From the NCBI RefSeq assembly GCF_003334385.1, contig NZ_QOWN01000082.1: a DNA stretch of 5,257 nucleotides; one strand, 5' to 3'. This document shows, piece by piece, positions 2,021-3,394 of the stretch (the stretch's first letter is position 1; each line of letters starts with the position of its first letter). Made by a program: the position numbers and the translations under genes. The notes under the pieces are model-generated. The model was not told the DNA's origin. It searched no databases and saw nothing but the letters and a program-made list of their open reading frames with translations. The stretch is from Escherichia coli. GTDB lineage: Bacteria > Pseudomonadota > Gammaproteobacteria > Enterobacterales > Enterobacteriaceae.

Positions 2021-3394
2021 TTATTTCAACGCTTCCGGCAGCGTCACAATCCACAGTTCACTGTCAGACTCCGGTTTCTCCAGTGGCTTCACTCTGAGGG
2101 TCGTTTCAACCTGCTTGTCGTCAAGCGTCAGCTTTCCTTCCGCGTTCACCCGATAATCCTTGAATGTCTTGCCCTCGACCGGATGTTGCATCGCCACCTT
2201 CACGCCAAAGTCGTTATCGTTCGCCACCGCCAGCGTTTTGCTGTCGATCAGCGCCAACCCTTCAGCCTTCTCCTGCTGCCAGCCCAAGGAGCGCAGATCA
2301 ACAACCTGCGTTTTCTGCGCAAGGGTAATGCCGCGCTGTGACAGGGTTTTCTCATCATCAAACTCCGGATACTCACCCGGCTTGTCGAAGCCTGACAGGT
2401 CGCTCGCCTTATTGAGATCGACCTCGTAAATCAGGTTACGCATTCTGTTGTTTTTATCTCTTCCCTGTTCGATCAGCAGGATGTGCTGGTTATCGAGCGC
2501 CACGATGTCTCCGATTTTAGCGTCGCTGTTTTTGCTGTAGGCCGCGCTGTCGATAGGATAACCGTACATCGCGGTTTTTCCGCTTGCCGGATCGAAGCTC
2601 ACCAGACGCGTAAACAGCGCCTTTTTCTTGCTCTTAGCGTCGATATCCAGCGTACTTTGCACGGCGACAATAATACGCCCGTCCGGCATACGGGTGAGGC
2701 CTTCAAAGCCGCGGTTCGCCTGACGCCATTTGAGGATATTTGGCAAACCGCCCGCAATCGCTTTTTCCCCTTCCGCCGCCTGCGGACCGTGGATTGCCAG
2801 GATTTTCCCTTTACTGTCGATGTTAATCAGGAACGGGCCATACTCATCGCACAGCCAGTAACCTCCTTTACCATCCGGAGTGATCCCTTCCGTATCCAGC
2901 CCGCGATTATCCCCCTTCAGTCTATGTAACGTGTCGCTGAAGGCCACTTCATTGGTGGAGCCAATCACGTCGCTTGCCAGCGGCAGACCGTTGATCGCGC
3001 CTTTATCGTCATGCAGAGGACGGGGATCGATGGCCTCCGCTTTGCCGTTTTGTACACGAATCGTCATCAGCAGCGGCGCGAAATCTGGCGTAACGAAAAT
3101 TTTAGTTTCGTTTTTCCCCTCTTTCGGTGAATCCGCGTTCGGACCGCGATCGGTAATGGTTGCGAATGTCAGGGCATCGCCCTGTTTACCGGTGAACAGC
3201 AGGCCAGAACCTATCCCAACCGGAAGGCCGTTCGGGAATGCACTGGCAAATGCGCCGGCATAGTTCACGTGCGTGCCTTCTGGAAAACTGACGACATAGC
3301 GCTCAGCCGTAGGTTGTGCCGCCAGGGCAGAGAAAGAGAGCGTACAACCGATTAGCACGGGAATAATTTTTCTTTTCATATTGTTAGCATCCAT
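2021..3394 (-). CDS. Secreted beta-propeller protein, probably of the phytase-like esterase family (function not established)
   Basis: Uninterrupted 457-codon ORF with E. coli-like composition. The N-terminus is a typical Sec signal peptide (MKRKIIPVLIGCTLSFSALA/AQP). The mature part is rich in Gly/Asp/Asn turn motifs with recurring DxEG/FEGL-type motifs (DTEGI, GFEGL) as recalled for phytase-like beta-propeller proteins. The start could be the ATG at 3394 (MDANN) or the ATG at 3379 (MKRK), which gives the better signal peptide. Confidence 0.7.
   Translation of the reverse strand: MDANNMKRKIIPVLIGCTLSFSALAAQPTAERYVVSFPEGTHVNYAGAFASAFPNGLPVGIGSGLLFTGKQGDALTFATITDRGPNADSPKEGKNETKIFVTPDFAPLLMTIRVQNGKAEAIDPRPLHDDKGAINGLPLASDVIGSTNEVAFSDTLHRLKGDNRGLDTEGITPDGKGGYWLCDEYGPFLINIDSKGKILAIHGPQAAEGEKAIAGGLPNILKWRQANRGFEGLTRMPDGRIIVAVQSTLDIDAKSKKKALFTRLVSFDPASGKTAMYGYPIDSAAYSKNSDAKIGDIVALDNQHILLIEQGRDKNNRMRNLIYEVDLNKASDLSGFDKPGEYPEFDDEKTLSQRGITLAQKTQVVDLRSLGWQQEKAEGLALIDSKTLAVANDNDFGVKVAMQHPVEGKTFKDYRVNAEGKLTLDDKQVETTLRVKPLEKPESDSELWIVTLPEALK

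Follow-up and report, generated by a model that had tools for sequence, protein, structure and literature searches.

The 5,257-nt stretch of Escherichia coli DNA analysed here (the window) raises the question of what an intact gene for an apparently exported protein does amid insertion sequence (IS) debris, and how it came to lie there. We consider it probable that the gene, captured from an Enterobacter-like lineage, encodes a PhoB-induced periplasmic phosphoesterase, probably Ca2+-dependent, that scavenges phosphate; this is the best explanation overall. RefSeq and the SRL-island literature already contain the gene, the name of its family and its island setting, and the mobile-element aspect adds little to these. 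What is new is a Pho box and its conservation at the same position. The locus is thus ordinary as mobile cargo and modestly interesting as an uncharacterised Pho-regulon enzyme.

The coding frame and its start

An open reading frame of 457 aa runs uninterrupted over positions 2021–3394 of the minus strand, where an earlier note on the window had placed an intact gene. That note also took it for the only intact non-IS gene of normal size. Apart from it, the window has just one intact non-IS ORF, a YmgB/AriR-family gene of 97 aa (4112–4405). The start codon had to be revised. The first ATG (3394) is present in the window but is not conserved, with Leu or a stop at that codon in most Enterobacter orthologs. 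The second ATG (3379, MKRK...), five codons further in, is universal among the orthologs and is the start used by RefSeq (WP_000823243.1, 452 aa). From this conserved start, the PF13449 "phytase-like" beta-propeller CDS spans 2021–3379 on the minus strand, stop included, and encodes 452 aa. The dN/dS of the gene relative to Enterobacter orthologs is 0.08–0.10 at a dS of 0.58–0.75; copies within E. coli are only 1–6 nt apart, so that selection on the acquired copy is not measurable.

Ancestral slot and spread in E. coli

In approximately 25 other Enterobacteriaceae species, the ortholog occupies a fixed slot beside yjiA-yjiX-cstA/btsT, at a distance of 55–120 bp, or more where extra genes were inserted. 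Orthologs in Enterobacter, Lelliottia, Pseudenterobacter, Pluralibacter, Yokenella and others are 77–91% identical. These Enterobacter-type orthologs resemble the E. coli copy in length, signal peptide, Pho box, -10 hexamer and conserved motifs, but differ from it in their fixed slot and in the absence of IS elements. No conserved operon partners were found outside this slot; the neighbourhoods in Pantoea, Serratia, Yersinia, Buttiauxella and others all differ. Of 5426 E. coli genomes, 5382 have the yjiA-yjiX-btsT genes themselves; in the one E. coli genome whose slot was inspected, the slot lacked the gene.

The gene does not belong to the ancestral gene set of E. coli and Shigella. As determined by blastn, homology between the window and Enterobacter is limited to positions 2018–3534, which comprise the gene and the 155 bp of 5' UTR and promoter DNA co-transferred with it (3380–3534, minus strand). 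This 1.5-kb piece would have entered E. coli/Shigella from an unsampled Enterobacter-like lineage; the dS of ~0.6 shows that the direct donor is not among the sampled species. There it would have ended up in a patchwork of IS66, IS3, IS5 and IS1 pieces, next to the fec iron-citrate operon of SRL-PAI-type islands. The resulting module would since have spread, in part at least by way of IS1, to plasmids and to further chromosomal sites.

Of 5426 complete E. coli genomes, 2192 (~40%) carry the module at ~99–100% identity. Further copies, some of them with IS1 on their flanks, occur on 64 plasmids and at one other chromosomal site. Identical junctions delimit the module in SRL-type islands adjoining fec, in strain ET5, where it lies near ecp and between two copies of IS1, and on plasmids of the IncHI1B and IncF types. 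Pairs of IS1 flank it in strain ET5 and on pYLMB10a. The minimal module (1820–3657) lies on an IncF plasmid with no fec nearby. Movement of the module appears to have occurred via IS1 or recombination.

The earlier note had suspected a horizontally acquired or IS-mobilised gene, and the confined homology together with the presence of the module at several sites and on plasmids bears this out. The genome comparison that it proposed returned the yjiA-yjiX-btsT slot elsewhere and an IS-associated module in E. coli. The opposite case that the note had named, a conserved core-genome setting in which the IS elements would be no more than later insertions, describes the other genera but not E. coli. 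The locus cleanly illustrates how a gene that is core in one genus was captured with its promoter and recirculated among the chromosomes and plasmids of another.

A Pho box conserved at the same position

No sigma-70 -35/-10 promoter was detected in a scan of positions 1800–3700, which is expected because Pho promoters are activator-dependent. Upstream of the gene, at 3430–3447 on the minus strand, lies a candidate Pho box (ATGTCATTTTCCTGACTC), in which two 7-bp PhoB half-sites, ATGTCAT and CTGACTC, are separated by TTTC and thus stand at 11-bp spacing. It is the sole match in the window to CTGTCATNNNNCTGTCAY at ≤3 mismatches (Pho box consensus and 11-bp repeat geometry according to PMC2648988). 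The -10 hexamer TATGGT (3414–3419, minus strand) follows 10 nt downstream without a -35 element, so the two 7-mers take the place of the -35, as in the promoters of the Pho regulon.

Taken alone, the E. coli box is no better than chance, with 0.69 such matches expected per window, and it is among the weakest of the family, with 3 mismatches and the second half-site CTGACTC. Across orthologs, the site is kept beyond chance. An equivalent box (≤3 mismatches) is located at -57 to -79 in 71 of 72 orthologous loci, compared with 1.3% of shuffled upstream regions that reach ≤3 mismatches. These loci span Enterobacter to Serratia, Yersinia, Buttiauxella, Mangrovibacter and others, and two of the boxes are perfect. 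A 44%-identical homolog also carries a Pho box.

From this architecture and its conservation we infer that the native promoter is PhoB-dependent, with the Pho box replacing the -35, and that the E. coli copy is likewise under PhoB control. If so, the protein should be made when phosphate is scarce, and the conserved box would place this widespread phytase-like, predicted periplasmic protein in the phosphate-starvation regulon. This regulatory reading, with a Pho box kept from Escherichia to Serratia and beyond, is the part worth keeping. The searched literature contained neither expression data nor PhoB ChIP data for the gene; it is not named in an APEC pst-mutant transcriptome paper and is not mentioned in an ESKAPE phosphate-limitation preprint.

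The E. coli copy could also be a silent hitch-hiker that has a decayed promoter, makes no contribution to fitness and is kept only by linkage to fec or other selected island genes. The mismatches in its Pho box would fit this, as would a 5-nt insertion downstream of the -10 that distinguishes its promoter from those of all orthologs. The gene sits within IS debris, and no intrinsic terminator was found 3' of it. The protein database also holds truncated variants, e.g., clusters of 352 aa and 408 aa, and the identity among E. coli copies is too high to reveal selection. On the other hand, the ORF is full length in all six E. coli-type copies examined, the near-identity of the module extends across the 2192 genomes, and the Pho box and -10 are still recognisable. 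The module was also retained through several independent relocations, including that of the minimal module to the IncF plasmid, away from fec. We therefore regard mere hitch-hiking as unlikely and retain the reading of a PhoB-controlled, functional gene.

Fold, conserved residues and probable activity

The earlier note had recognised beta-propeller and phytase-like esterase features in the protein, and both were recovered. The sole Pfam match in hmmscan was PF13449 ("Phytase-like / esterase-like activity of phytase", E=7.5e-43), which covers residues 60–396 of the 457-aa ORF and positions 4–284 of the 284-position model, i.e., most of the family model. This domain, the propeller core, maps to 2207–3217 on the minus strand. 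No second Pfam family, and thus no unrelated one, was matched even at an independent E≤10, and the NCBIfam scan assigned no family. The AlphaFold2 model is an all-beta propeller (mean pLDDT 95.3, pTM 0.92), in which low confidence is confined to residues 1–20.

Searches of the PDB gave zero matches by sequence, only generic and uninformative NHL/"Pizza" blade matches by profile, and only generic propellers of low TM by Foldseek. The structural neighbours in AFDB50 were all unnamed PF13449 proteins and gave no functional lead. The nearest solved folds include YjiK, glutaminyl cyclases, lactonases and NHL binding domains, and also Ca2+-binding propellers such as the Ca2+-activated nucleotidase SCAN-1. 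The C-terminal domain of YjiK (PDB 3qqz; Pfam SdiA-regulated) and the glutaminyl cyclases (3mbr, 3nok) are 11–17% identical to the protein, cover only about half of it, and have unrelated or unknown functions. They are useful as fold neighbours, not as functional guides. The conserved residues include 12 acidic and 5 basic ones, in the motifs TDRGPN, GLDxEG, DEYGP, NRGFEG, AKIGD, IEQG, EKAEG and NDNDFG. Most of these motifs map to the start of a strand or just past its end in the AlphaFold2 model.

No biochemically characterised member of the PF13449 family was found in the searched literature, so the chemistry has to be argued from association. On this basis we infer that the protein most likely hydrolyses organic phosphate esters in the periplasm in a reaction that depends on a metal, probably Ca2+, and that Pst would import the phosphate set free. 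Among distant homologs there are fusions to 5'-nucleotidase, metallophosphoesterase and ParB-like nuclease domains. One distant homolog adjoins a ugp-like transporter and a GDPD gene; the neighbours were uninformative in two of the three distant homologs examined. In phosphate-starved cyanobacteria and diatoms (Nodularia, Synechococcus, Phaeodactylum), PF13449 proteins are secreted and among the most strongly induced proteins, with log2 fold changes of 5.5 and 7.4 (PMC9846622, PMC11020310, PMC7283521). According to their authors, the Pfam domain is shared by Nodularia NSP_RS03145 ("atypical alkaline phosphatase"), Synechococcus WH8102 Q7U9T8 and Q7U862, and Phaeodactylum PtPhos2/HASP1. In contrast to the protein studied here, these are much larger, multidomain and distant in sequence; the cyanobacterial relative that was retrieved is 29% identical.

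The PhoX and Psip1 alkaline phosphatases, which are Fe3+/Ca2+ beta-propellers, are similarly exported, induced by Pho control or P starvation, and phosphate-scavenging (PMC11098088). Psip1 orthologs are sometimes fused to a phytase-like domain (PMC11098088). Psip1 was considered as the characterised relative and rejected, because its domain is a distinct one, to which a phytase-like domain is joined in some cases only.

The protein might instead be Pho-regulated without being a hydrolase, e.g., a binding or scaffold propeller, an enzyme of the lactonase or cyclase type, or an envelope-remodelling activity used in phosphate starvation. The closest solved folds, namely YjiK of unknown function, glutaminyl cyclases, lactonases and NHL binding domains, would suit such a role, and the Pho regulon also contains non-hydrolase genes. 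This alternative is nevertheless rather improbable. Fusions of homologs with 5'-nucleotidase, metallophosphoesterase and nuclease domains recur, one homolog neighbours ugp and GDPD genes, and the dense invariant carboxylates with Arg/Lys are typical of metal-phosphate sites. Family members are also secreted in bulk under P stress in algae and cyanobacteria.

A genuine phytase, i.e., a beta-propeller enzyme that depends on Ca2+ and removes phosphate from myo-inositol hexakisphosphate in the periplasm, is what the name of the Pfam family suggests. Pho-type regulation would suit a phosphate-releasing enzyme of this kind, and phytate-hydrolysis isolates of Pantoea brenneri carry an ortholog that the authors list as a phytase gene, without an assay (PMC12697123). 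The beta-propeller phytases (PF02333; Bacillus PhyC/TS-Phy type) and the window protein have in common a secreted all-beta propeller, conserved carboxylates, phosphate-linked biology and the name. However, the protein gave no match to the PF02333 profile, and solved beta-propeller phytases are not its closest structural relatives, being absent from the first 60 structural neighbours. Its membership of the beta-propeller phytases is not supported, and we give the phytase reading little credence relative to that of a phosphoesterase of another family.

A wider proposal is conceivable, although we advance it tentatively. PF13449 could constitute a distinct class of exported phosphoesterases that depend on a metal, and would in effect add another "alkaline phosphatase" family to PhoA, PhoD, PhoX, PafA and Psip1, used in phosphate starvation from enterobacteria to cyanobacteria and diatoms. 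If true, 40% of sequenced E. coli and the SRL-carrying Shigella would have gained a PhoB-controlled copy on mobile DNA linked to fec. Because the gene is present in ~40% of complete E. coli genomes, E. coli genetics could serve directly to define the substrate of PF13449.

Export and processing

The gene product would be a Sec-exported, signal peptidase I (SPase I)-processed periplasmic beta-propeller enzyme. The predicted Sec signal peptide of 20 residues (MKRKIIPVLIGCTLSFSALA, followed by AQPT) is encoded at 3320–3379 on the minus strand. Its layout, as read from the sequence, consists of the MKRK n-region, the IIPVLIGCTLSFS h-region and the ALA/AQ cleavage site, and thus combines a charged n-region and a hydrophobic core with small residues at -3 and -1. 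The AxA site (A-x-A followed by A or E) is kept at the same position in all of ~70 orthologs, in which the KRK n-region and the hydrophobic core are likewise conserved.

The earlier note had left the N-terminus ambiguous between this site and a LIGC lipobox, at which a lipoprotein anchored in the outer or inner membrane would be processed by SPase II. LIGC agrees with the lipobox pattern [LVI][ASTVI][GAS]C, and its Cys is conserved within the Enterobacter/Pantoea clade. Counted from the conserved start, however, this Cys is residue 12, which leaves a hydrophobic stretch of only 7 residues. It is not invariant, being swapped for S, T, Y, A or L in many orthologs (Serratia, Yersinia, Buttiauxella, Scandinavium-like, and one E. 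cloacae ortholog), whereas the AxA downstream of it is universal. Since the AxA is conserved and the Cys is not, the predicted route is Sec export with SPase I cleavage after ALA, and a lipid-anchored form is very doubtful.

IS elements and the SRL island

The IS pieces in the window belong to four families, IS66, IS3, IS5/IS1182 and IS1, in agreement with the earlier note; the annotation was taken from the RefSeq record of a 99.9%-identical genome. An IS66-family element, cut by the window start, occupies 1–1819 on the plus strand (tnpB 1–347, tnpC 397–1782, from ORFs and RefSeq annotation). Its right terminal inverted repeat (...ctgtacgcttac) mirrors the left end (gtaagcgtacag) and ends at 1819, which is 201 nt past the stop of the gene and matches the ~200 bp reported earlier. 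The 8-bp target duplication of IS66 is absent (AAATAGTG vs TTTTGTTC), so this junction is a rearrangement and not a simple insertion. The adjoining segment (1822–1937, plus strand) consists of a C-terminal fragment of a DUF6404 gene, annotated as a RefSeq pseudogene (CDS remnant 1822–1899), and its 3' flank. Positions 1820–1937 match DUF6404 genes on many E. coli plasmids at 85–94% identity, and the 1822–1937 patch is, judging from these matches, of plasmid-type origin. Simple insertion of IS66 into an intact DUF6404 gene was ruled out by the missing duplication, and also by the IncF plasmid copy, which stops at this very base and has another IS on the far side.

On the upstream side of the gene, a C-terminal transposase remnant of the IS3 family (IS629/IS1203-like) lies at 3661–3838 on the plus strand (RefSeq pseudogene 3661–3792), with 94–97% identity to IS3/IS1203-type (IS629/IS1203) copies. 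This is the IS629 remnant that the earlier note had seen upstream; between its start (~3661) and the first ATG there are 266 nt, and 281 nt up to the conserved ATG. Next comes an IS5/IS1182-family transposase remnant (3857–3987, plus strand; RefSeq pseudogene annotation). An IS1F copy, of which the window contains just one end (5114–5257, minus strand), separates this patchwork from fecIRABCDE. Although the gene is bracketed by IS66 and IS629 sequences, these pieces do not make a transposon, and a composite element with the gene as cargo and the two as its ends is contradicted by the anatomy to the point of being negligible: the flanks are of different families, all that is left of the IS3 element is a short internal or C-terminal piece with no ends, no target duplication accompanies IS66, and relocated copies are bounded by IS1, with a truncated IS66 that starts at window position 843.

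The arrangement has already been published as orf34–orf37 of the SRL pathogenicity island of Shigella flexneri 2a (Luck et al. 2001; re-annotated in PMC6980539), in publications that give orf34 neither a function nor a regulation. The window protein is the SRL orf34 protein (99.78% in the table of PMC6980539). Island and window share their neighbours, with the IS66-family orf35–37 (L0015/L0014/L0013) on one side and fec (orf26–33) on the other. Both the SRL island and the E. coli locus continue with a Gp2-family gene, hha and alpA, which gives the order fec - orf34 - IS66 (orf35–37) - Gp2-family - hha - alpA (compare Table 2 of PMC6980539). Relative to the SRL island, the window has additional IS5 and YmgB-like sequence that separates the IS3 remnant from IS1, which is not a substantive difference.

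Conserved candidate Pho promoter upstream of the phytase-like gene

When the regions upstream of the orthologs of the phytase-like gene were aligned across several genera, one strongly conserved block was found just upstream of the gene. In the window, this block reads ATGTCAT-TTTC-CTGACTC (3447..3430, minus strand), with the hexamer TATGGT (3419..3414, minus strand) 10 nt downstream. It has the architecture of PhoB-activated promoters, where two 11-bp repeats with a CTGTCAT core stand in place of the -35 element (PMC2648988; also a preprint). Taken alone, the window box, with 3 mismatches, is not significant (0.69 such matches expected by chance). 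In 71 of 72 orthologous loci, a box with no more than 3 mismatches was present within -57 to -79 relative to the start; two boxes were perfect, twelve had one mismatch, and a -10-like hexamer followed each ortholog box. Only 1.3% of shuffled upstream regions reached 3 mismatches. The same arrangement of box and hexamer was found in a homolog of 44% identity from a different gammaproteobacterium. A scan of 1800-3700 detected no sigma-70 -35/-10 promoter, in line with a promoter that depends on an activator.

The captured E. coli copy has kept this predicted PhoB promoter. Its box is among the weakest of the orthologous boxes and, owing to 5 nt inserted between the start codon and the -10 hexamer (~3400-3412, minus strand) relative to 18 aligned orthologs, lies at -68 instead of -63. 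The conserved Pho box is the new point here, of modest interest: it provides a testable function for the uncharacterised PF13449 family, carried by 40% of sequenced E. coli. Some 50 nt upstream of the box, a perfect palindrome, GTTGTTA-caaa-TAACAAC (3495-3512, minus strand), takes the position that (C/T)TGTCAC has in Enterobacter orthologs; it may be an additional PhoB half-site or a different operator.

Predicted export and fold of the phytase-like protein

The phytase-like ORF is intact (2021..3394, minus strand, 457 aa by ORF search of the window). Across about 70 aligned N-termini of orthologs, its first ATG (3394) is not conserved, most Enterobacter having Leu or a stop at that codon. MKRK (3379) is the universal start, in agreement with RefSeq. 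The earlier note had used the upstream start and left the N-terminus ambiguous between signal peptidase I cleavage and a LIGC lipobox. Counted from the conserved start, the LIGC Cys is residue 12, too early for a lipoprotein signal, and it is limited to the Enterobacter/Pantoea clade, with S, T, Y, A or L elsewhere; the lipoprotein option is therefore improbable. Since the A-x-A site followed by A/E occupies the same position in every aligned ortholog, the protein is most likely a Sec substrate, which signal peptidase I is predicted to cleave after Ala20, freeing it in the periplasm. With these two corrections, to the start codon and the cleavage site, the earlier observation was confirmed.

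The sole Pfam match of the protein was PF13449 'Phytase-like' (E=7.5e-43); an NCBIfam scan gave no match, and a sequence search detected no solved structure. An AlphaFold2 model (63-sequence alignment) is an all-beta propeller with mean pLDDT 95.3 and pTM 0.92, low confidence being confined to residues 1-20. Both the family and the fold are as had been proposed from the sequence. The structural neighbours included the C-terminal domain of E. coli YjiK (score 19.7), bacterial glutaminyl cyclases (19.2 and 17.5), the human Ca2+-activated nucleotidase SCAN-1 (15.7) and the Ca2+-binding propeller of Deinococcus SodC (15.6).

About 45 positions are at least 90% conserved, with homologs of as little as 30% identity counted in. 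Among them are twelve acidic residues (D77, D162, E164, E179, E226, D291, E304, D327, E339, E373, D388 and D390) and five basic ones (R78, R223, R258, K288 and K371), which fall in the recurring motifs TDRGPN, GLDxEG, DEYGP, NRGFEG, AKIGD, IEQG, EKAEG and NDNDFG. Most conserved motifs lie at a strand start or just past a strand end of the model, from which we infer that they surround the central channel at one of its mouths, where propeller enzymes usually have their active site.

Candidate function

No biochemical study of any PF13449 protein was found in the literature searched. In Nodularia, Synechococcus WH8102 and the diatom Phaeodactylum, PF13449 proteins are secreted and rank with the proteins that phosphate starvation induces most strongly (PMC9846622, PMC11020310, PMC7283521). 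The log2 fold change under phosphate starvation is 5.5 for the Nodularia protein, annotated 'atypical alkaline phosphatase', and 7.4 for Phaeodactylum PtPhos2/HASP1. Long homologs bear 5'-nucleotidase, metallophosphoesterase, ParB-like nuclease and choice-of-anchor-I domains, and one homolog adjoins a ugp-like transporter and a GDPD gene. Together with the Pho box and the conserved carboxylates, these relatives, fusions and neighbours point indirectly to phosphate scavenging. The carboxylate and Arg/Lys pattern, along with the Ca2+-binding structural neighbours, suggests a metal-phosphate site in the modelled protein.

Sequence and analogy thus make it fairly probable that the protein is a PhoB-induced, periplasmic, probably Ca2+-dependent phosphoesterase; confidence in export and regulation exceeds that in the chemistry. 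PhoB would induce its synthesis, and after export the protein would scavenge organic phosphate in the periplasm, probably with Ca2+. True phytase activity is improbable. The protein differs from the beta-propeller phytases (PF02333) by sequence profile, with no PF02333 match, and by structural neighbourhood, as neither beta-propeller phytase nor PhoX was among the top 60 neighbours; 'phytase-like' is therefore a label, not a classification.

A giant cyanobacterial ORF (L080 5161-10412, >1749 aa) runs off its contig. Its PF13449 domain is apparently inserted inside a choice-of-anchor-I domain, later model positions of which come after it, followed by a metallophosphoesterase GNHE motif and a 5'-nucleotidase C-terminal domain. 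This ORF looks like a multi-phosphatase fusion.

Origin outside E. coli

Enterobacter, Lelliottia, Pseudenterobacter, Pluralibacter, Yokenella and Scandinavium-like strains have homologs at 77-91% identity; those of Serratia, Yersinia, Buttiauxella, Cedecea, the Cronobacter group and Mangrovibacter are at 60-67%. In ~25 species of the closer group, 55-120 bp separate the gene from the yjiA 3' end, with yjiX and cstA/btsT next, a fixed chromosomal position without IS elements; Enterobacter also has a yfaZ-like gene upstream. The yjiA-yjiX-btsT genes are present in 5382 of 5426 E. coli genomes, and in the one E. coli slot inspected the phytase-like gene was absent, the slot holding an IS1 copy and other genes. 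The slot is an insertion hot spot (loci L002, L006, L013, L069 and L089), with glycosyltransferase-8 and Wzy_C genes in some Enterobacter and a BrnT/BrnA toxin-antitoxin pair in Pluralibacter.

The window and Enterobacter loci share homologous DNA only at 2018-3534, i.e., the coding sequence and 155 bp upstream, and the homology ends exactly at the stop codon. Against Enterobacter orthologs, dN/dS was 0.08-0.10, so the gene evolved under strong constraint, and dS was 0.58-0.75, so no sampled species is the direct donor. The yjiA slot elsewhere, these homology limits and the relocations within E. coli support the proposal of a horizontally acquired or IS-mobilised accessory gene.

Contigs labelled 'uncultured Ruminococcaceae bacterium', which match the E. 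coli module at 99% identity and also have its DUF6404 remnant, and 'Chryseobacterium sp. 18061', with Enterobacteriaceae yjiA synteny, look mis-binned or contaminated (L007, L033 and L073).

IS surroundings

The entire 5257-bp window is 99.8-99.9% identical in the best-matching E. coli chromosomes, and at least 80% of it is covered in one place in 1409 of 5426 complete genomes. According to the RefSeq annotation of one genome of this near-identical group, IS66-family tnpB and tnpC (1-1782) and a 26-codon C-terminal remnant of a DUF6404 gene (1822-1899) lie on one side of the phytase-like gene. On the other are an IS3-family remnant (3661-3792), 94-97% identical to IS629/IS1203-type copies, an IS5/IS1182 remnant (3857-3987), a further IS3 fragment (4708-4812) and, from about 5130, IS1F and fecIRABCDE. 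The right end of IS66 ('...ctgtacgcttac') is at 1819, 201 nt past the stop codon, and mirrors the left end gtaagcgtacag. The description of the gene as lying between IS elements of four families was therefore accurate. Its G+C is 52-56%, that of the region to the right 31-46% and that of IS66 55-63%.

No 8-bp target duplication borders IS66 (AAATAGTG on the left, L001 14523-14530, versus TTTTGTTC on the right, window 1820-1827), so the sequences on its two sides were separate before it inserted, and a secondary rearrangement joined it to the DUF6404 remnant. With 1820-1937 also resembling plasmid DUF6404 genes (85-94% identity), the surroundings are a recombinational patchwork and not a transposon carrying the gene. 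The patchwork also holds an intact YmgB/AriR-family gene (4112-4405, minus strand, 97 aa; a biofilm/acid-resistance regulator family) in a 31-37% G+C segment amid IS fragments, missing in the ATCC 25922 version.

Movement within E. coli

Of 5426 complete E. coli genomes, 2192 carry segment 1820-3660 at ~99-100% identity (median one copy), and 64 plasmids of E. coli or E. fergusonii carry a phytase-like copy of at least 99% identity. Several versions of the module have identical inner junctions. Besides the full window, these are ATCC 25922 (without 3835-5006), strain ET5 (843-3918, near ecp/ykgJ), IncHI1B plasmid pYLMB10a (843-4031) and IncF plasmid pKSE-C30_1 (1820-3657 only). In ET5 (L082 4995-10080) and pYLMB10a (L083 7596-12566), the module lies between two IS1 copies and shares the IS66 truncation point 843, inside tnpC, a sign that plasmid and chromosome may have exchanged a single IS1-bounded unit.

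The order fec, phytase-like gene, IS66, Gp2-family gene, hha and alpA recurs in the SRL pathogenicity island of Shigella flexneri. The phytase-like gene is numbered orf34 there, first described as a 'putative periplasmic protein', and the IS66 genes orf35-37 (PMC6980539). The gene was thus already described and catalogued, and its mobile-cargo aspect is ordinary and published. The island around the window (L001) also contains Ag43, the CP4-57-like genes yfjI, a Gp2-family gene and alpA-type regulators and, past fec, queD with dpdD/dpdK, a system for 7-deazaguanine modification of DNA; cargo for iron uptake, adhesion and DNA modification thus travels with the phosphate-linked gene.
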